A stretch of 64,000 nucleotides of DNA, taken from positions 46,517 through 110,516 of the forward strand of contig JBLFWS010000001.1 in the NCBI GenBank assembly GCA_047611865.1, read 5' to 3'. The notes below the pieces were generated by a model. That model saw only the letters and a program-made list of their open reading frames with translations, was not told the origin of the DNA and did no database searches. The translations under genes were made by a program, and so were the position numbers. The stretch comes from Chlamydiales bacterium. GTDB taxonomy: Bacteria; Chlamydiota; Chlamydiia; Chlamydiales; JBDQID01. Position 1 is the stretch's first letter; every line of letters begins with the position of its first letter. Below, piece by piece: positions 25,176-33,665 of this stretch.

Positions 25176-26075
25176 CTAGACCTGTTTTGCCTCATGCTCT
25201 TCTGCGGCTTTAGAAAGCCCGGAGACAAGTTCCTGAAACCCCCCCTCGAGTAGACCCAGTCCACTCAGGCTCTCCTTAAGAAAAGAAAGCTCCTCCTGAA
25301 GCACCTTTAAAGCTTTTTCAAAGCCAGCAACTACAACAAAATTTGTTTTACAGCCTCGGCTAGTGTCCTGCTCAACATCTCCAAAATCGTCTGCTATTTG
25401 AAATGCCATACCGAAATGCCACGCAGCCCTTTTAACCTCCTCGATTCGATCAATGCGTCCGCCCCCAAAAAGCCATCCAAGAACAAAGGATAATTCAAAA
25501 AGAGCAACCGTTTTGGCTCGTATGACCCGCCGTAATGTCTCAAGGGTCTGATCTGGCGGATAGATGTCTAGAAACTGCCCTCCGGTAGCCCCCGCAATAC
25601 CTGTATTGTAGGTCACGTTTTCCAAAGCGCGCATACAGATCTCATCACCCGAACCAGACAAAAAGTTATCGGGATTGTCACTTCGGGCGTGGGCATTTTT
25701 ATAAATACATCGATATCCAGCTGAAATTAAGGCGTAGCTGGCCAATAGAGCCACTGCCTCGCCATATACCTTGTGGAGAGAGGGCTTACCCCTCCTCATG
25801 TCGTCGTTGTCCATACAGGGCAAATCATCGGCTATTAAAGAAGCCGTATGAAAATATTCTGCTGCAAGAGCGACATTTGTAACATCTGTTTTTTGATCTA
25901 AGGCCTTTGCCACCATAAAAACAATAATAGGTCTCAGTCGCTTACCTCCATTGAGGAGTGCATACTCGCAAGCATCGCGAAGCTTGCTTTTCTCTCCAAT
26001 TTGAGGAATGCTTTCAGCAATAGCCTTTTCGGCATACTCTAAAAAGTCTGCGAGCTGTGTATTTTGAAGTGTCAT
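25176..26075 (-). CDS. ispA: Geranylgeranyl/farnesyl diphosphate synthase
   Basis: GGKRLRP, SLIADDLPCMDNDDMRRGKPS, GGQFLD, FQIADD. Confidence 0.93.
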   Translation of the reverse strand: MTLQNTQLADFLEYAEKAIAESIPQIGEKSKLRDACEYALLNGGKRLRPIIVFMVAKALDQKTDVTNVALAAEYFHTASLIADDLPCMDNDDMRRGKPSLHKVYGEAVALLASYALISAGYRCIYKNAHARSDNPDNFLSGSGDEICMRALENVTYNTGIAGATGGQFLDIYPPDQTLETLRRVIRAKTVALFELSFVLGWLFGGGRIDRIEEVKRAAWHFGMAFQIADDFGDVEQDTSRGCKTNFVVVAGFEKALKVLQEELSFLKESLSGLGLLEGGFQELVSGLSKAAEEHEAKQV

Positions 26076-26248
26076 GTTTTATAACCGTGTAATGTAGTTA
26101 AAAGCGACCCTGCCCTTAAAGAAAATGAAAATAAGGCTGTCGATATGATAGCCCATATCAAAATGAGGGAGCGTTAGACAATTCTGTCTAGTTAACAGAA
26201 AGAAGATTAACAAAAAAAGAACACAAACGTCAAGTTCTCATAATCAAA

Positions 26249-26947
26249 TTACTTTAATGCCTTGCTCGTCTCTGAAATCTCGGCTTTATGCGAAGGCCGA
26301 ATAGTGTGGTCACTTGGAATAAAGCCTCCAAAAGTCGTACAGGGATAACAAAGTACTCTTTTTCCAAGTAGGGTACCAGGATTCGTAACAGAGTTACAGC
26401 CAAGTTGAACGTTGTCTCCTAAAATCGCAGCAAACTTCCTGAGCCCCGTAGAAATTTTTTTTCCCTGAAACTGAACAACAATGCTTTGGTTATCTAATTT
26501 AAGATTTGCACATTTTGTCCCCGCTCCTAAATTTACTTGATTACCTAAAATACAGTCCCCAACGTAGGCGAAGTGGGCCGCTTGTGCTTTGTTGAGAAAA
26601 ATAGCATTTTTTACTTCCGTCGCATGACCAATTACGCACTGGTCTCCAGTCACAACATTTCCACGTATATAGGCGCCATGTCGAATGCTAGAGTTTTTTC
26701 CAATTATACAGGGGCCTTTAATATAGGCTGTAGGTTCGATTACAGTTCCCTTTCCAATAGAGATTAATTCAGGGTTTACGAGATGAACGCCTTCGGGAAT
26801 ATCAACTTCAATATTTCCAAGGTCGTAGGCTTCTAAGTATGTGCTAATATTTGAAAGGGCTTCCCAAGGATAAGTGCAATTTTCAAAAATCTTTGCATGT
26901 TGAAACTCATTAAGATCAAAAAAGTAGGAAGGTGAAAGTTCATTCAT
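26249..26947 (-). CDS. GlmU-like hexapeptide-repeat acetyltransferase (acetyltransferase domain only)
   Basis: AYIKGPCIIG, IGHATEVKN, AAHFAYVGDCILG, NLGAGTKCAN, TGLRKF. Confidence 0.85.
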   Translation of the reverse strand: MNELSPSYFFDLNEFQHAKIFENCTYPWEALSNISTYLEAYDLGNIEVDIPEGVHLVNPELISIGKGTVIEPTAYIKGPCIIGKNSSIRHGAYIRGNVVTGDQCVIGHATEVKNAIFLNKAQAAHFAYVGDCILGNQVNLGAGTKCANLKLDNQSIVVQFQGKKISTGLRKFAAILGDNVQLGCNSVTNPGTLLGKRVLCYPCTTFGGFIPSDHTIRPSHKAEISETSKALK

Positions 26948-26977
26948 GGGGGGGGGCTCCTTAAAATTTTCATGTTC

Positions 26978-27238
26978 TTACGAACATTATCAACAATGTT
27001 CCTTTAAAGAGGAATATAGAAAGATATTTTCTTCTTCTTCTTCAGAGGCTGTGGAGATGTTGATAAGTGTACATTTATACGTTAGCTAATAGGCTGTTCA
27101 TAATTTGTCAGTAGTAGGTTAATAAGTTCTGAGTTTTGAACAAATTATAGGTTATGAACAAATATTGTACCCATGAGTTGACAGGTTTGTGAACAAATAA
27201 ACAGAACATTTTTGTTGAGAAAACGCGATTGTGGAAAT
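26978..27238. promoter_or_regulatory. Putative replication origin, left half (degenerate DnaA boxes plus an unwinding module pointing left)
   Basis: TTATCAACA 26987, TGTTGATAA 27058, TGTTCATAA 27095, TTATGAACA 27152, TTGTGAACA 27187. Minus-strand module TTATCAACA-TCTCCACA-GCCTCT-(GAA)5 at 27029-27066. Lies at the GC-skew switch. Confidence 0.65.
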
Positions 27239-27267
27239 GAAAATATAGTGAAAAATAGAAAGAACAG

Positions 27268-27290
27268 CCTAGCCATAAAGATGGCTAAGG
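27268..27290 (-). terminator. Probable intrinsic terminator downstream of fliE
   Basis: TAGCCAT-AAAG-ATGGCTA hairpin followed by T-rich sequence on the minus strand. Confidence 0.45.
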
Positions 27291-27332
27291 AAAGAATGTA
27301 AACCCAAATATTTACAGACCAATCCTAAGTTA

Positions 27333-27692
27333 TTAGGATCCACGACTTATTTGTTCAAAGCTCTTAACGAGTTGTCCACGGATCTGCATCATCAAATCAA
27401 AGGCAGATTTTGCCTCATCCATAGCCATAACGACTTCATGAATATTTTCTGTTTCTCCAGCAACAAATCTCTGAATCTGTGCATCAGAATCATGTTGTAA
27501 AGTATTCACTTCATCAAGATACCGGGAGAGAACATCCTTAAAAGTATGAGTATTCTCTAGGTTCGCCGATTCTTGAGGTTGAGGAACATTTATCTGAAGA
27601 TCAGCACCTTTAACAAAAATTGAAGGATTTTGAAGTTTACTAGCTCGAACAGGTAAGCCTGAATTAACTTCGAGAAAACTTGAATCAACCAT
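27333..27692 (-). CDS. fliE: Flagellar hook-basal body protein FliE
   Basis: FKDVL...EVNTLQ...FVAGETENIHEVVMAMDEAK...MQIRGQLV; follows flgC. Confidence 0.88.
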   Translation of the reverse strand: MVDSSFLEVNSGLPVRASKLQNPSIFVKGADLQINVPQPQESANLENTHTFKDVLSRYLDEVNTLQHDSDAQIQRFVAGETENIHEVVMAMDEAKSAFDLMMQIRGQLVKSFEQISRGS

Positions 27693-27706
27693 TATATACC
27701 TCTAAA

Positions 27707-28189
27707 TTAGCCTCTGCCGATGGCAAGAGCTTGGCGGTTCATTTTATAGGACACGGCCATCACAGTTAAGTTAGCCTCGTAGGAAGCTGCCGCTATACGC
27801 AGGTCAGCCATTTCCTGAGAACCACTAACACTGGGATAATACACATAACCCGCATCAACACTACCGGCCTTTCGAGCCGCCGGGTGAGATGGAGCATATA
27901 TTTTTTTTACACTGTTCTTTAGTTCTATCATTTTTTTTACACGAACACCGTTAATAACGTCACCATTAACCCTGTTTTCTCTGAATTTTTCAGATAAGAC
28001 CTTGGCAAAGAGGGGAACTTGTCTTGCATAGGGGACAAAATTGCCGCTTTTATCACGGACTCCCGTATCTAATGTGTGAGAGTTTGCAATGTTATTCGAT
28101 ATTGCATTCATCCACTGACGACTAGACTTAAGACCGGACGCGGCAACCCTTGAAGCTCTAAAGACATCGTTAATGTTTGAAGGATACAT
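27707..28189 (-). CDS. flgC: Flagellar basal-body rod protein FlgC
   Basis: AASGL...MNAISNNIAN, PYARQ, YAPSHPAA, GYVYYPSV, EMADL..A..SYEAN. Confidence 0.92.
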   Translation of the reverse strand: MYPSNINDVFRASRVAASGLKSSRQWMNAISNNIANSHTLDTGVRDKSGNFVPYARQVPLFAKVLSEKFRENRVNGDVINGVRVKKMIELKNSVKKIYAPSHPAARKAGSVDAGYVYYPSVSGSQEMADLRIAAASYEANLTVMAVSYKMNRQALAIGRG

Positions 28190-28190
28190 A

Positions 28191-28559
28191 TTAAGAGCCT
28201 CCCTTAATTGCGGTATTCAGCATTTTTACTTTCTTCGTATAAAGATCTGTGTAGATCTGGTAAAACATGGCATTTTCTTGCATGGAGGCCATTTCCATAT
28301 CAATATCAACATTATTACCGTTATTACGAACAGCTGTATTAGTTGGACGATCAACAAAGCCCCTAATGTTGCGATAATCAGAAGCTTGGCCCTTAGCCAT
28401 TGCCTCACGCAAGGCTTTGGAAAACTTAAATTCTCGTCTGCGATAATTAGGAGTGTTGACGTTAGCTATGTTTTGGGCAGACACCTTATGCTTTGCTGAA
28501 TGTAAATCTAGCATCTTCCCAAGGAGGGTAAAATTTTTGTTACCTATCTTTGTAAGCAT
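28191..28559 (-). CDS. flgB: Flagellar basal-body rod protein FlgB
   Basis: AQNIANVNTPNY, RNNGNNVDIDMEM; start moved to ATG 28559 after an AGGAG RBS. Confidence 0.93.
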   Translation of the reverse strand: MLTKIGNKNFTLLGKMLDLHSAKHKVSAQNIANVNTPNYRRREFKFSKALREAMAKGQASDYRNIRGFVDRPTNTAVRNNGNNVDIDMEMASMQENAMFYQIYTDLYTKKVKMLNTAIKGGS

Positions 28560-28593
28560 AATCTTGCTCCTAGCAGTTTTATATTCTGAAACA

Positions 28594-28610
28594 AGCAAGA
28601 CTGATGCCAA
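28594..28610 (-). promoter_or_regulatory. Sigma54 (-24/-12) promoter of flgB-flgC-fliE
   Basis: Minus strand TTGGCATCAGTCTTGCT has exact GG-N10-GC spacing, 34 bp upstream of the flgB start. Confidence 0.75.
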
Positions 28611-28704
28611 AAGGTTTTTAAGGGAGTCAAAAGAAGGAGTACCCAATAATTAGGTGGGCAATTTGTTCTTATAGGGAATTATTTTCTTAAGCCATTCAAA
28701 TAAA

Positions 28705-29409
28705 TTATTGAAGCATCCAATTAATCGGAGCTTTGCCGTCCTTCTCAAGGAGACGATTGATTGTTGAAAAATGACGAGAACCAAAAAAACCAGAATTGGC
28801 TGAATATGGTGAAGGATGGGGTGAGCTTAATACAACATGATGCTTATGCTGGGAAAACTGCTCTAGCTGTTTATACTTTTCTTGAGCAGACTTTCCCCAG
28901 AGGACAAAAATAATGGCTTCTTCACGTTCTGCAAGGTGGGTAATTACAGCATCGGTAAAGCGTTCCCATCCTCTTCCATGATGGGACTTAGGTTCTCTCG
29001 TACGAACAGTAAGGGTAGCATTGAGAAGCAACACGCCCTGACGAGCCCAGTGTAAAAGGCAGCCATGCTTTGGATCGGGAATACCAAGATCAGACCCAAG
29101 CTCTTTAAAAATGTTTTTCAGGGACGGAGGGGGCCGCACGCCTTTTGCAACACTAAAGCTCAAGCCGTGGGCTTGTCCTGGTCCATGATAAGGATCCTGG
29201 CCCATTATGACTACTGAAACTTGGTGATAAAGAGTTTGATTAAAAGCGCTAAAGATTTCTTTTTCCGGGGGGTATACTTGCTTACCTGCTGCTCTTTCTC
29301 CTTCCAAAAACAGAAGAAGTTCAGCAAAATAAGGTTTTTTAAATTCTCCCTCCAATTTCGATACCCAGCTTGGATCGAGAATCATGGGTAGTTGGAGCTT
29401 ATTTTTCAT
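28705..29409 (-). CDS. ung: Uracil-DNA glycosylase
   Basis: GQDPYH, HGLSFS, PPSLKNI, GVLLLN, HPSP; start ATG 29409 after AGGAG. Confidence 0.97.
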   Translation of the reverse strand: MKNKLQLPMILDPSWVSKLEGEFKKPYFAELLLFLEGERAAGKQVYPPEKEIFSAFNQTLYHQVSVVIMGQDPYHGPGQAHGLSFSVAKGVRPPPSLKNIFKELGSDLGIPDPKHGCLLHWARQGVLLLNATLTVRTREPKSHHGRGWERFTDAVITHLAEREEAIIFVLWGKSAQEKYKQLEQFSQHKHHVVLSSPHPSPYSANSGFFGSRHFSTINRLLEKDGKAPINWMLQ

Positions 29410-29547
29410 GAGAAATCTCCTAAAAACGGTCAAAAATGAGGGGAAAAATAACATTGATTATGTTTAAACAACAAGTTGAATTTGAGATTGACGATAAAGT
29501 ACTTAGGAAACTAGAATGTTGCATTCACATTTTCAGGAAATGTATTA

Positions 29548-29802
29548 ATGAAAAATCTTGCTGATAATTTTGTAGTACGCTTCATCAATATTTCTCGTAA
29601 AAAAGAAGGCATATTCGCCAACTTTAAGGTTAAGGGAATCAAGGGTGGAACGTCAGTAACAGCTTCTATCGCAGTCGATATTTTGGAAGCTGAAGTAGAT
29701 CCAACGGATCCACTAGAAAAAATCATTGAAGAATGTGCTCGAATTGCCGTAAAAGAGTTAAAGAAATCAGAGTTCCAATTCGAAGGCATGGCTTTAGTCT
29801 AA
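29548..29802 (+). CDS. Small hypothetical protein (probably a conserved chlamydial family)
   Basis: 84-aa ORF with globular alpha/beta-like composition, directly upstream of tRNA-Pro. Confidence 0.6.
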   Translation: MKNLADNFVVRFINISRKKEGIFANFKVKGIKGGTSVTASIAVDILEAEVDPTDPLEKIIEECARIAVKELKKSEFQFEGMALV

Positions 29803-29811
29803 TTTGTTTAT

Positions 29812-29886
29812 CTGGGTGTAGCGCAGCTTGGCTAGCGCACTTGCATGGGGTGTAAGGGGTCGGAGGTTCGAATCCTCTCACCCAGA
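29812..29886 (+). tRNA. tRNA-Pro(GGG)
   Basis: Acceptor stem CTGGGTG/CACCCAG, anticodon arm CTTGC-ATGGGGT-GTAAG, T-loop GTTCGAATC; CCA not encoded. Confidence 0.95.
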
Positions 29887-30038
29887 TTTTCTTTTTTTCA
29901 CAACATAGTTCTAAATTTTCTCTAAAAATTAGATACAGATGTATCTGAGCATTCTCATGTTTTCAAATTCCCACTCTTTTTCAAAAAGTTTTTTTTATAT
30001 TCTTTCCTTAGATCAACAAAACAACTCTATTTTCGCTA

Positions 30039-30684
30039 TGTGGGGAATTGTTCACAGTAGGAGAGAAGAGAATTGTCGAGCAAAATGTCGATAGTTGTAA
30101 AGAAGTCGTATACCTGTGCATAACCACCCCACTTATAAACCTAGAGTTAACAAATTGCGAACAGGTCGCTACAGAGGAGAAAACCCCTCTTATCAACAAG
30201 TCCACAGCCTCTGAAGAAGAAGAAGAGTATCTATATTTATTATTCTTCATAATAATCTCGGTGGAAAATCGTGTCTTTTCTCAAAACTTCAAAAAATGGG
30301 CATTTTGTGGATGAAATGTTCGCAAATAGAGAGAAAGAACTTGTTCAAGGAAATGAAGGTAACTATGTCGATAATGTTAAATTGTCAGTAAGCCGAAGTT
30401 TATAGACCAATAACGAACAAGTAATGAACAGCTACATTTAGGAGACAAATATACCCTATTGCAAACATCTCCACAGCATAAGAAGAAGAAGAAAACAGTT
30501 TAAATATAAATATTATAAAACATAGAGCATGTGGAAAGCTTAAAAATGGCAAACAATTTGAAAAGACTTTGATCGTCAATATTCGATCTCTTGAAATTTA
30601 TGCCTAAACAAAATCTAAAGTAAGCCCTTAACTCGAACACTTTTTACCAAGTCACGTATTAATTTTTGAGAATGTTGTGTATAA
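30039..30684. promoter_or_regulatory. Putative replication origin, right half (DnaA boxes plus two unwinding modules pointing right)
   Basis: Consensus TTWTNCACA boxes on the minus strand at 30115 and 30676; degenerate boxes at 30048, 30155, 30190, 30306, 30317, 30366, 30422; modules at 30190-30245 and 30459-30520. Confidence 0.7.
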
Positions 30685-31006
30685 CACATCTTACTTCGAC
30701 AAAAATATGAGTTATAAGTGAAATGAAAGTAGGTCGAAATACTCCAAAAGCGGCTTCGCAATTTTAATATACAACTTCGATTTGCATATGGCATCGCCAG
30801 CTTTCTTGAATTAATTATGTGTTTCAAAACGCTAAAAAAGTCTCTAAAATAGAATTCCAAATTCGAAACTGGTTATGATGAATACCCCAAACGAAATTCA
30901 AAATAAGCAAAAGCCTAAATTTAAAAATAAATCCAGCCCTAAAAGTAAAATAATCTTGTCAAAAAGGAGTCTATAGAGGTAAAAAGGCAGATAGCTTAGA
31001 AAAGGT

Positions 31007-32464
31007 ATGCCTCAATTTATAGAGGATAGGATGACTAGATTTACACACTGGAAAGTTTTTCTTGGAATTGTAGTTTTCATTTTTATGTGCGGAGAAGCGA
31101 GCTTAGTTTCTCAAGCAACTGAAGATGAAAATCTTACTGAAAGCTCACGACCCAATATACATCGATTGAACAACAGTCAACTTCTTGCGCAGGCTGAAGC
31201 AGTGGAAAAGGTTCCTCTTGCGAAAAAATATTTTCTCGAAGGAAAAGTATTTTATGACCAAGGTGATTTTACAAATGCTTTAGAATCATTTCGAAAATCA
31301 CTCTTTGAAGACCCTACAGACCCTGTTCTTAACCATCTTATGGGTAGGTCCGCTTTTGAAATTGGGAGTTTTGAAGAAGCTTTGTTCGCCTTTGAAAGGG
31401 TTCTAGTGCTCAATCCAAACCTTGCTTTAAGTCGCCTTGAAAAAGCTCGAACACACCTTGCCCTGGGATCAAACCTGGAGGCTAAGGAAGAATTATTGCG
31501 GGTTTTAGAAGCGGATATCCCACCAGAAGTCAGAGCAAATGTGGAAACACTACTTGCGCAAATCGGCTCGGAAAGAAAACATGAAGTTAGTGGGGTAATG
31601 CTTTTCAGCAATACGTGGGATGCAAACGCAACGTTAGGAACAGGCGCCCTCCCTCTTCCACAAGCACCATCATTGACATCAGACCCGACAACACAAAGTG
31701 ATAGAATATTTTCTATGGCAGCTGTTTTAAGCCACAAGTATCCCTTGGCAAAGGAAGGGCTTACCTGGAAAAATGGAATTACTTGTTTTGCTTCGGATAA
31801 CGTAACTTTAAATACGAACGATCTTTTACTGGGCGCTTATTCGAGTGGATTGGAATATTCTTTTAAGAGACATTTATTTGATGTAACCGGTTCAGCAACC
31901 GTAATCTTGCTAGCTGAGCATTTGTATCAAAGTACTCCTGCATTAACTGTGAAGTATAATTATGCTTATTCACCAAGGCTGAGTTTTACAACAGGAGGAA
32001 ACTACACAAGAAGGCATCATTTTTCTACTGCAGGAACAGACCAAACTTTCGGTTTTGTAAACTCATATAATTTAGGTGTGAGCTTTCTCAAAGACGATAA
32101 AAACAGTTGGAATACCAGCTGGACTCAGAAGTTTGATAAATCACCTAGAGATTTGAAAGTAGCCTCTTCATATTACCGTTATGAATTAGTCCTTGGTTAT
32201 ACACGAGTTTTAACAGACAGGCTTAGCCTAACGCTTAAAGGCACTCGTAGGCATGATGAGTACGCTATAATACACGATGTCTTTACAGACCGGCAGAGAA
32301 GTGACATAACCCGTATTGGTAATTTGGCCTTAAATTTTAAGCTTACGCCAACCCTCTTGCTTGATATTGCTGGTGGGTACACTGACAATGACTCGAACAT
32401 TCCAAATAACACCTACATCACAAAGCAGGGGATTCTGACTTTGACAGCCCTGTTTGGGCCTTGA
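31007..32464 (+). CDS. TPR-domain outer-membrane beta-barrel protein (Slam/DUF560-like architecture)
   Basis: Signal peptide, TPR repeats (EALFAFERVLVLNPN, RLEKAR), C-terminal amphipathic beta strands. Confidence 0.6.
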   Translation: MPQFIEDRMTRFTHWKVFLGIVVFIFMCGEASLVSQATEDENLTESSRPNIHRLNNSQLLAQAEAVEKVPLAKKYFLEGKVFYDQGDFTNALESFRKSLFEDPTDPVLNHLMGRSAFEIGSFEEALFAFERVLVLNPNLALSRLEKARTHLALGSNLEAKEELLRVLEADIPPEVRANVETLLAQIGSERKHEVSGVMLFSNTWDANATLGTGALPLPQAPSLTSDPTTQSDRIFSMAAVLSHKYPLAKEGLTWKNGITCFASDNVTLNTNDLLLGAYSSGLEYSFKRHLFDVTGSATVILLAEHLYQSTPALTVKYNYAYSPRLSFTTGGNYTRRHHFSTAGTDQTFGFVNSYNLGVSFLKDDKNSWNTSWTQKFDKSPRDLKVASSYYRYELVLGYTRVLTDRLSLTLKGTRRHDEYAIIHDVFTDRQRSDITRIGNLALNFKLTPTLLLDIAGGYTDNDSNIPNNTYITKQGILTLTALFGP

Positions 32465-32491: not shown

Positions 32492-32737
32492 ATGCTTGGT
32501 GCTTGGGAAATTATTGTAATACTATTCGTTGTTTTGCTTTTGTTTGGAGGAAAAAAACTTCCAGAACTGGCCCGCAGTCTTGGAGAGGGGATACGGGAGT
32601 TTAAAAAGGCTTCTCAGGAGATTTCTCAGGAGCTTGAGGTTCGCGATGTTGCTCAGACACCGCCCTCCGCCCACAAGTCTAAAGAAAATGAAAAAATATT
32701 AGAAGTAGAGCCAGAAGAAAAGAAGACCGGTGGTTGA
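32492..32737 (+). CDS. tatA: Twin-arginine translocase subunit TatA
   Basis: [35 protein letters not shown]. Confidence 0.95.
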
Positions 32738-33665
32738 AACTGGCGGCATTGAGGGAAGCTTCTGGGATCATCTGGAGGATTTCCGAAAGACTATACTTTC
32801 TTGTGCTTTTGTGATTATTTTTTCATCTGTGATAGCGCTATTTTTCTACGAAAATGTTTTTTATATTCTTACTACGCCACTAAGATCTTTGAATAAAGAA
32901 GAATTGGGGCGTGGAGCTGTATATAGATATCAAGTTAAGAGAGAGCGTATTGTCAATGAGGGTTCTCATGAGGTCACCTATACCATGCTTGAAGATGGTC
33001 GTGGTGACCTGTCTTTCTCGAAAGGAGTAAGGCCTATTGGAGACGGCTCTTTTTTAATTGAAAGTGGTGGATATATTGATTTTGACATTCCAGCAGATCA
33101 CGAAGGTTTAGTGGTTTTCAGTCCTATAGAGGGAATGCTTACAACTTTTAAGGTGTCTTTTTGGGTGGGTTTGGTTTGTAGTGCTCCGATCTGGATGTTT
33201 ATTATTCTGAGTTTTTTTAGCCCAGGCCTAAAGCATAAAGAGAAGAGACTTGTATTCCCCTTTATACTTATGTCATTAATTTTTATGGGATTTGGGGTTT
33301 TATTTTCTCTTACTACCATAATCCCATTGGCAAACAGCTTTTTATATGCTTTCAATGCAAATATTGGAAATAATCTTTGGGCATTATCACAGTACTTGAG
33401 TTTTACAACGGTTTTGTTGCTGTCTAACGTTTTGGCCTTCGAATTATTTGTACTTTTATTATTTTTGGTTCACTTGGGAATTTTGAGTTCGGAAGCCCTG
33501 CAGAAAAAGCGCCGTATAGCGATTGTGTCAGCATTTGTGCTTGGGGCGGTACTAACACCTCCGGACGTTCTTACGCAGTGCCTACTGGCCTCCATTTTGA
33601 TTATATTCTATGAATTAGCCATTGTATATGCGCGAGTTAGGTCTCGAAGAAAAAGACTTGCTTGA
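32730..33665 (+). CDS. tatC: Twin-arginine translocase subunit TatC (with loop insertion)
   Basis: [36 protein letters not shown]. Confidence 0.92.

Follow-up and report, generated by a model that had tools for sequence, protein, structure and literature searches.

The closest described counterpart of the element treated here is the basal unwinding system (BUS) of Bacillus subtilis, which is defined as one or more DnaA boxes followed, across a spacer of at most 16 bp, by at least three trinucleotides ("trios") of the form 3'-NAN-5' with a conserved central adenine; up to two mismatches in the box and a tandem second box are allowed, and the trio consensus is 3'-GAT-5' (PMC8287927). We analysed a stretch of 64,000 nucleotides from a Chlamydiales bacterium (hereafter the window; C1:46517-110516 of an assembly of 3,592,277 bp in 272 contigs, 95.5% complete), in which a module of about 80 bp occurs in three copies and carries a run of GAA triplets where the BUS has its trios. 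Taken together, the results make it very likely that this locus is the origin of chromosomal replication (oriC), with the module as its conserved core. Judged by its sequence, the module represents a variant, shared throughout the clade, of the unwinding system made up of DnaA boxes and trios.

All three modules share the order TTATNAACA, two unspecified nucleotides, TCCACA, a C-rich spacer of 6 nt, (GAA)4-5, an AT-rich stretch and a DnaA box that faces inward at about +60, counted here and below from the T of TCCACA. Module 1 (26987..27066, minus strand) consists of the distal box TTATCAACA at 27058-27066, the dinucleotide TC, TCCACA at 27050-27055, the spacer GCCTCT at 27044-27049, (GAA)5 at 27029-27043, an AT-rich stretch at 26996-27028 and the inward box TGTTGATAA at 26987-26995. 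In module 2 (30190..30268, plus strand), the distal box TTATCAACA at 30190-30198 is followed by AG, TCCACA at 30201-30206, the spacer GCCTCT at 30207-30212, (GAA)4GAG at 30213-30227, the AT-rich stretch at 30228-30259 and the inward box GGTGGAAAA at 30260-30268. Module 3 (30459..30537, plus strand) has the distal box TTGCAAACA at 30459-30467, TC, TCCACA at 30470-30475, the spacer GCATAA at 30476-30481, (GAA)4 at 30482-30493, its AT-rich stretch at 30494-30528 and the inward box TGTGGAAAG at 30529-30537. Each of them was recovered by sequence reading, by pattern search and by a hidden Markov model (HMM), modules 1 and 2 additionally as the arms of an inverted repeat and module 1 by a position matrix for DnaA boxes. 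Modules 1 and 2 are identical at 36 of 38 positions (27030-27067 versus 30189-30226) and inverted, with 3121 nt between the arms, which extend to 52 nt at 85% identity; modules 2 and 3 form a direct repeat with a spacing of 269 bp and agree at 71% over 55 nt. An earlier note, written from the letters of this DNA alone, had read the three modules (27029-27066 on the minus strand, 30190 and 30459 on the plus strand) as well as the 36/38 match, its inversion and a separation of about 3.1 kb, and these readings are confirmed letter by letter. The element it missed is the inward box that closes each module, with TGTTGA at +61 in module 1, GGTGGA at +60 in module 2 and TGTGGA at +60 in module 3.

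Written 3' to 5', the B. subtilis BUS comprises the distal box AATAGGTGT, the proximal box TTAGGTGT, the spacer CCGG and the repeats GATGATAATGAAGATGAT (PMC8287927). The same strand of the chlamydial module gives AATAGTTGT, AGAGGTGT, CGGAGA and CTTCTTCTTCTT. The likeness noted earlier is thus closer than had been stated: both systems have an abutting pair of a 9-mer and an 8-mer box with a common core in the same orientation, as does the Staphylococcus aureus row, followed by a short G+C-rich spacer, a run of repeats of exactly 3 nt and an AT-rich stretch. Moreover, the last two bases of the chlamydial spacer read 3'-GA-5', at the position of the first trio, in 45 of 86 modules (CT at +11/+12 on the top strand). 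The box TTATCAACA has one mismatch to TTATCCACA and none to the chlamydial box of DoriC, 12-14 nt separate the first box from the repeats, depending on the register, and AT-rich sequence lies beyond the repeats. The two systems differ in that the chlamydial repeats are 3'-CTT-5' (GAA on the top strand) and not 3'-GAT-5', so that the strand expected to be bound is nearly free of adenine. The chlamydial spacer is also longer (6 nt, compared with 4 nt in B. subtilis), the distal box is systematically TTATNAACA instead of TTATCCACA, and a second, inward-facing box closes the unit at about +60. A canonical BUS hidden elsewhere in 26000-31500 was ruled out; this interval contains two chance-level T-run sites with poor boxes, and such sites occur at 0.24 per kb genome-wide. 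The published BUS finder requires (.A.){3,}, and the sites in its chlamydial rows are different ones that score low, at 3-10 (PMC8287927); owing to the central-adenine requirement it is blind to the chlamydial module by construction.

For chlamydial genomes, Ori-Finder proposed the box TTTTCCACA (PMC2275245), and the DoriC box 3'-AATAGTTGT-5' is given in the rows of Simkania and Parachlamydia (PMC8287927). In these resources, as here, the origin is placed by skew and boxes together, and their boxes recur in the module, TTTTCCACA as its inward box and TTATCAACA as its distal box. They differ from the present locus in that neither the accessible text of these sources nor a literature search carried out largely without subscription journals yielded an account of the core as a fixed composite, of the GAA run, of its conservation across the order or of origins with several cores.

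The locus combines the features by which an oriC is recognized, namely a skew switch, a cluster of DnaA boxes and an AT-rich unwinding element adjoining the boxes. The skew curve covers the 110-kb contig only, as the assembly is in 272 contigs; on this contig the cumulative G-C minimum, expected at 27-31 kb by the earlier note, falls at window position 26,664, beside module 1 and about 320 bp from it. Two-kb bins of GC skew range from about -0.1 to -0.24 on the left side of the locus and from +0.1 to +0.28 on the right. Open reading frames (ORFs) of at least 200 aa diverge from the locus, with 31 of 46 on the minus strand on the left and 12 of 19 on the plus strand on the right. According to a TTATNNACA-type position matrix, the interval 26978-27195 contains seven boxes and is the densest 400-bp window of the genome, compared with 0.47 boxes per kb genome-wide. 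The box cluster behind module 1 (27067..27332) includes TTATNNACA-type boxes at 27095 (-), 27134 (+), 27152 (+) and 27187 (+) and a TGTGGA at 27230. Around modules 2 and 3, four such boxes lie in 30115-30684 and four TCCACA/TGTGGA hexamers in 30201-30535 (0.57 per kb genome-wide), and the intergenic leader of these modules (29888..30189) carries scattered box-like sites, for example TTATGCACA at 30115 (-). The proposal that each module sits in a cluster of degenerate DnaA boxes therefore holds strongly for module 1, with its seven boxes, and less so for modules 2 and 3, with four boxes and four hexamers. Duplex stability in the two intergenic regions is lowest in the 30-bp windows beginning at 27004, 30228 and 30498, each just past a GAA run; the one at 30228, in module 2, is the least stable of the whole 64-kb window, and the minimum at 30498, in module 3, is at the 99.97th percentile. 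An Rfam-type scan of the locus for RNA families yielded the tRNA and no other family.

Linkage of the origin to dnaA was ruled out: both dnaA genes of this genome are on small contigs away from the locus, and dnaA is distant from the module in all five relatives with large contigs that were checked. This is in agreement with the statement that Chlamydiales have two dnaA copies, neither of them linked to the skew minimum (PMC2878342). A gene for a DciA-type helicase operator was observed on another contig (C3:8960-9223; PF05258, 45.9 bits), so helicase loading at the origin would be of the DciA kind.

Within the assembly, the module is confined to this locus. The pattern TCCACAGC-N4-GAAGAAGAA with at most one mismatch is matched three times in the window and not once in any of 100 shuffles, and the regular expression TCCACAGC-N2-5-(GAA)3+ matches three sites in the whole assembly, all at the origin locus, although runs of (GAA)4 or longer occur at 24 sites assembly-wide. 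An HMM built from 28 modules retrieved precisely modules 1 to 3 (E values of 2.5e-12, 3.5e-13 and 2.1e-8, respectively), the next best hit having an E value of 0.33. The box pair alone (at most one mismatch) is found at 13 genome sites and is followed by a GAA run at only two, both in the origin locus. A dispersed or mobile repeat, one of the outcomes that were to refute the initial proposal, is excluded by the presence of only three copies, all within 3.6 kb, in both the regular-expression and the HMM search. Separately, three near-identical stretches of about 50 nt at C4:12851, C91:2375 and C105:613 end in the box-pair-like sequence TTAT(A/T)GAGAT(C/A)TCCACA; these probably represent the terminal part of a dispersed repeat or of an insertion sequence and have nothing to do with the origin modules.

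Relatives were sampled from genomes of the same order, and a second, phylum-level sample also held only that order. The exact pattern was present in 4 of 41 relatives, and the strict pattern with at most one mismatch in 115 of 401 genomes of the order (77 of 216 genera), compared with 21 matches of a reversed-pattern control. The full architecture was found in 28 of the 37 matches with flanking sequence, the other nine looking like chance matches in other contexts. A sequence-only covariance model (R1), built from the 28 full-architecture modules and applied with a cut-off of E <= 0.01, matched 133 of 151 genomes (105 of 117 of high quality; 105 of 111 genera) as well as 97 of 101 genomes in the second sample, including 22 of 23 of a genus whose genomes measure 1.0-1.3 Mb. 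The match lies within the first 50-210 bases of the record in several genomes that consist of a single contig. Where skew was followed for 20 kb on either side of the best match, in 10 relatives with large contigs, a clear switch from negative to positive coincided with the match in six (our genomes G148, G042, G069, G115, G073 and G095). The search among other Chlamydiota suggested in the earlier note thus located the module in most sampled genomes, and the module is not a peculiarity of this genome; it is an order-wide oriC core, and the non-canonical repeat is consequently a trait of the clade. Of 37 loci of 3 kb from relatives, 21 hold a tRNA-Pro(GGG) besides the module, usually on its strand and upstream of it, and the other 16 have no tRNA within 3 kb. 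In the small-genome genus g36 (e.g., G222:C1:547520-547610), a model match on the opposite strand overlaps the main one with an E value of about 0.001-0.002, for which reason the far side of the AT-rich stretch can be regarded as a mirrored, weaker copy of the module, the two forming convergent double cores. An overlapping opposite-strand copy was likewise seen in family f26 (L045, L048, L057).

A logo of 91 distinct modules defines the core more closely. In the distal box (-11 to -3), conservation in percent is T93 T99 A80 T93 N A78 A100 C97 A98, and the proximal core TCCACA (+1 to +6) is conserved to 84-100% per position. The spacer at +7 to +12 is SCNYCT-like. It is followed at +13 to +24 by four triplets of the composition [G63/A24/T13] A96 A91, G89 A96 A95, G93 A93 A91 and G90 A95 A71, C being absent from +13 to +23 and T reaching no more than 2% at +14 to +23, which bears out the earlier observation that the strand in the place of the trio strand is without a central adenine. 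A and T dominate to about +42, and in the pyrimidine-rich stretch from +43 to +53 most positions are T in 52-67% and C in 15-31% of modules, with at most 5% G. At +57 to +64, TGTGGA is present in 40 of 91 modules, compared with 0.7% of 5000 control windows. Formation of a hairpin or cruciform from (GAA)n...(TTC)n was ruled out for the three modules of this genome, whose fold z scores against shuffles are -1.18, -0.66 and -1.37.

The bipartite origins known from other bacteria provide the nearest parallel to the distribution of cores over this locus. In B. subtilis the incAB/incC arrangement constitutes such an origin, and in it, as in that of Helicobacter pylori, the box clusters flank dnaA and only one part is known to hold the unwinding element. 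The H. pylori oriC has been described as two-part (PMC8235120). Common to these origins and the present one are DnaA-box clusters separated by intervening genes. Here, however, the split is made by fliE-flgC-ung-tRNA-Pro, dnaA is elsewhere and each part has a complete core; an origin of the B. subtilis/H. pylori type was therefore ruled out. Multiple cores recur among the relatives, in many families. Same-strand pairs 252-330 bp apart, a range that includes the 269 bp between modules 2 and 3, are found in other families (G037, G028, G160, G095, G052, G012, G008, G045, G076 and G031), pairs diverging outward, at 650-900 bp, in one family (the three genomes G125, G140 and G026), and pairs 1-10 kb apart in G110, G064, G137, G111, G120 and G127.

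Gene order around the cores is informative in this regard. Module 1 adjoins a hexapeptide-repeat transferase gene (26249..26947, minus strand; Pfam), which together with a polyprenyl synthetase gene (25176-26075, minus strand; Pfam) forms the conserved right flank of the origin core in G028 and G125. Between the cores lies a minus-strand block (27333..29454) of fliE (27333-27692), a flgC-like gene (27707-28189), an ORF in the flgB position (28191-28646) without a Pfam match, and the uracil-DNA glycosylase gene ung (28705-29454), fliE, flgC and ung being assigned by Pfam. Then follow, on the plus strand, an ORF of 84 aa without a Pfam family (29548..29802), whose place is taken by ORFs of 84 aa in G125 and 98 aa in G028 and which is thus conserved as to position, and the tRNA-Pro(GGG) gene (29811..29887), the conserved left neighbour of the origin core. 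Module 3 is succeeded by plus-strand genes for a TPR protein (31007-32464) and TatC (32730-33665; both Pfam), which in G028 follow the distal core. The complete order in this genome (G000) is polyprenyl synthetase, hexapeptide transferase (-), core 1 (-), fliE, flgC, x, ung (-), orf84 (+), tRNA-Pro, core 2, core 3 (+), TPR, TatC (+), where x is the ORF in the flgB position. In G028 it is kinase (-), core (+), TPR, TatC, Aldh (+), fliE, flgC, x, ung (-), orf98 (+), tRNA-Pro, core, core (+), hexapeptide transferase, polyprenyl synthetase (+), and in G125 ung (-), core (-), orf84 (+), tRNA-Pro (+), core (+), hexapeptide transferase (+), polyprenyl synthetase (+). The flanks of the cores in this genome and G028 correspond one to one, core 1 being next to the hexapeptide transferase, core 2 to tRNA-Pro and core 3 to TPR-TatC, and from this arrangement the two genomes appear to differ by inversions with breakpoints at the cores. 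That a three-core origin is kept in two families argues for selection on the extra copies. A recent duplication is not needed to explain the 36/38 match of modules 1 and 2, as the GCCTCT spacer and the boxes recur in other families. Two further observations concern the neighbourhood. Flagellar basal-body genes (27333-28646) adjoin a chlamydial origin here, and the same block lies by the origin of G028, a member of another family (L191 7322-8534). Directly upstream of the start of the hexapeptide transferase gene, 30 bp from the inward box of module 1, is a run of nine G (C on the coding strand; 26948-26956), which could be a slippage-prone tract or an assembly artefact.

As anticipated for Chlamydiae, the genome encodes two DnaA paralogs, DnaA-a (450 aa, 346 bits) and DnaA-b (464 aa, 200 bits; adjoining yidC), at L001 973-2325 (-) and L002 240-1634 (-), respectively (orthologs L131-L190). 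Both are present in 41 of 41 genomes sampled, and the nearest Atlas clusters of one of them are from Chlamydiota. Their residues, and those of up to 30 orthologs per paralog, were mapped onto B. subtilis DnaA (PDB 8btg). In DnaA-a, E183, N187 and E228 are kept in 30/30 sequences and N196 in 26/30, I190 and I193 are Val and Leu in 30/30, an invariant Lys aligns near R202, and K222 is replaced by Arg in 30/30 (R227 in this genome). In DnaA-b, position 183 is E193 in this genome and E in 22/30 sequences, N187 is E or D in 26/30, N196 is Gly in 26/30, I190 and I193 correspond to V200 and I203 in this genome, and R202, K222 and E228 are kept in 30/30, 29/30 and 30/30, respectively. The inspection of single-strand-binding residues proposed in the earlier note, which had envisaged altered recognition, thus gave a divided result: DnaA-a retains the G- and A-contacting residues and DnaA-b is changed at both base-contacting Asn.

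The account that we favour, with fair confidence in the whole, is that of an oriC with three complete conserved cores in which GAA/CTT is the equivalent of the trios and whose cores are old and maintained. The BUS-like geometry of box pair and spacer leads one to expect a DnaA filament on the lower strand that opens the AT-rich stretch. Accordingly worded as a model, DnaA would anchor on the box pair, and the filament would extend onto the lower strand, 3'-CTTCTT-5', and open the AT-rich stretch beyond it, each GAA/CTT triplet serving one DnaA protomer in the manner of a trio. We consider it an even chance that DnaA reads the GAA run as single-stranded triplets. If so, the units might be centred on cytosine (3'-TCT-5'), or the divergent DnaA paralog might be the reader. 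The presence of three cores would be old and maintained, inversions having shuffled them, and more than one of them may open. DnaA binding, the strand and register that are read and the identity of the firing cores we infer from these comparisons. The B. subtilis register of 12 nt yields 3'-GAC TTC TTC TTC-5', with the canonical GA in the first unit in about half of the modules, the 13-nt register yields the cytosine-centred units 3'-ACT TCT TCT TCT-5' and the 14-nt register CTT. A spacing of 13 nt is the most common one for trios (PMC8287927). In B. subtilis, the amine of the central adenine bonds with Asn187, and cytosine, likewise the bearer of a primary amine, is alone in being able to take the place of that adenine without loss of strand separation in vitro, with better growth than G or T (PMC10721633). 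A reading centred on cytosine is therefore biochemically plausible. Binding of a pyrimidine strand has a precedent in Escherichia coli, too, where DnaA binds the DNA unwinding element (DUE) on its T-rich strand via TTGT and TTATT and not via trios (PMC5742627). Seen from box to DUE, as exemplified by the R1 box of E. coli, the DnaA-bound strand is T-rich and pyrimidine-biased there, as is the strand expected to be bound in the chlamydial module, and specific T-containing motifs matter and adenine-centred trios do not (PMC5742627). The E. coli origin differs in its 13-mers and IHF-assisted recruitment, and it is without an exact trinucleotide run or an abutting tandem box pair.

A number of observations weigh against this account. 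R1 has no match in 18 of 151 genomes. Among the 10 relatives, the skew switch was only partial in G110, where a second module lies 10 kb on, in G118, and in G134, where 7.5 kb were available on one side, and an origin-like switch was absent around the weak match of G050. The 91 modules of the logo were found via a GAA-containing pattern or model, so that +13 to +44 are biased by ascertainment, which does not apply beyond +44. Conservation is about the same at all three triplet positions, a pattern that suits a duplex-level site no less than a trio in which the third base is free. Trios with a central adenine, of which the BUS has at least three, do not occur in the run; across registers the bound strand reads CTT, TCT or TTC (T at +14 to +23 of the top strand being at most 2%), and the register is ambiguous among the three spacings. 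Because DnaA-a keeps the G- and A-reading residues of B. subtilis, an adapted reader is not evident in this paralog. The second densest DnaA-box window of the genome, with six boxes, is located upstream of dnaA-a on a 4.4-kb contig (C247:3200-3800). This cluster opens with a degenerate pair (TTATCAACA aggt TTCCACA) followed by GAAGATG and no GAA run, and holds a second box pair with an AT-rich stretch; the length of the contig does not allow a skew test. It may be a dnaA promoter subject to autoregulation, or an origin that is a relic or has an accessory role. Finally, the third-codon GC skew of the fliE-ung block is +0.021 +/- 0.064, compared with -0.22 for left- and +0.49 for right-replichore genes of that strand, and the hexapeptide transferase (+0.227) and TPR (+0.013) genes are intermediate as well. 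This indicates a 7-kb transition zone across all cores, which fits a recent inversion or replication from two sides.

It is possible, if in our estimation the less probable course, that only one core opens and that the other copies are by-products of inversions centred on the origin or of duplications, kept as accessory sites where DnaA binds for titration or regulation, or in slow decay. This alternative concerns the multiplicity of the cores only and is compatible with either interpretation of the GAA run. It gains from the presence of one strong match per genome in most relatives, from the duplex stability of modules 2 and 3, which is far below that of module 1, from the degenerate distal box (TTGCAAACA) and weaker HMM score of module 3, and from the flanks in G028 and G125, which imply inversions breaking at modules. 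None of the three copies, however, has lost any element of the core, the inward box at +60/+61 included, and the three-core set is common to a second family with one-to-one flanks. The recurrence of tandem pairs at 252-330 bp in many families again argues for selection on extra copies, and the neutral third-codon skew is compatible with replication from either side, though a recent inversion explains it equally. The separate outward-facing sites postulated in the earlier note hence exist as architecture, each of the three cores being complete, and opening or helicase loading at more than one of them is the part of that proposal that we infer.

A second alternative, which we consider rather unlikely, retains the origin and treats (GAA)n as a duplex-level element, which could be either a homopurine-homopyrimidine tract that determines helix geometry or facilitates melting beside the AT-rich stretch, or a site at which a different factor acts, for instance a nucleoid protein or the DciA/DnaB loading step. 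The similar conservation of the triplet positions, with a strict constraint to purines on one strand, would be accounted for in this way, as would the pyrimidine tract that mirrors the run beyond the AT-rich stretch (TTC-like pentamers in 58/91 modules, compared with 15% of controls). The canonical trio-contact residues of DnaA-a, which are ill-suited to CTT, and the DciA-type helicase operator in the genome point in the same direction. The exact 3-nt period, on the other hand, equals the footprint of a DnaA protomer, and the run is at a fixed offset from the box pair, in the position and orientation of BUS trios. There is no hairpin signal (fold z of -0.7 to -1.4), at 12-15 bp the run falls on the short side for a stable triplex, and we know of no candidate protein that would bind the GAA run.

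A more far-reaching version of the trio-equivalent account, which we regard as improbable, assumes a re-coded opening in which each paralog reads one of the two boxes, DnaA-b captures the pyrimidine triplets and origins with two or three cores open at more than one site. It builds on the recognition helix of domain IV, which reads the TnCACA part of the DnaA box (PMC5742627). The distal (TNAACA) and proximal (TCCACA) boxes of the module differ precisely in the part read by this helix. Compared with RDHTTVIHA in B. subtilis, the helix is K-T-H-S-T-x-L-H-A in DnaA-a, with Asp replaced by Thr in 28 of 30 sequences, and R-D-H-S-T-V-M-[S/T/A]-S in DnaA-b, where the last His is replaced in 29 of 29. 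These reciprocal changes fit two paralogs that would read different boxes and different single-strand units. In this version, the pair of TTATNAACA and TCCACA would be read by two different DnaA heads, the helix changes (Asp to Thr; His to Ser/Thr) being reciprocal and order-wide, and the pyrimidine triplets would be captured by DnaA-b, with its N187 to E/D and N196 to G replacements.

That the module is no origin at all, and instead a regulatory or promoter element linked to tRNA-Pro, a mobile repeat or a terminus-type site, is highly improbable: tRNA-Pro(GGG) does adjoin it in 21/37 loci, but 16/37 lack the tRNA within 3 kb and no Rfam family besides tRNA was detected, the skew turns from negative to positive, as at an origin and not at a terminus, and the module has three genome copies only, at a single locus and with DnaA-box architecture. 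The origin claim of the earlier note is thus upheld by the skew minimum, the divergent genes, the density of boxes, the stability minima, the uniqueness of the module and the skew switches of relatives.

For the chlamydial origin, so far placed by GC skew only (PMC2878342), there is thereby a defined cis-acting core of about 80 bp, open to searches, annotation and testing. For fragmented metagenome assemblies, this core is a practical marker of the origin. The module would represent an order-wide natural exception to the rule of the central adenine in DnaA-trios, and it makes the choice of strand by DnaA testable with two natural paralog variants. It also offers a concrete candidate role for the second dnaA of the Chlamydiae, which has long been unexplained. 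Lastly, two or three complete cores kept through rearrangements bear on the assumption that bacterial origins have a single unwinding site.

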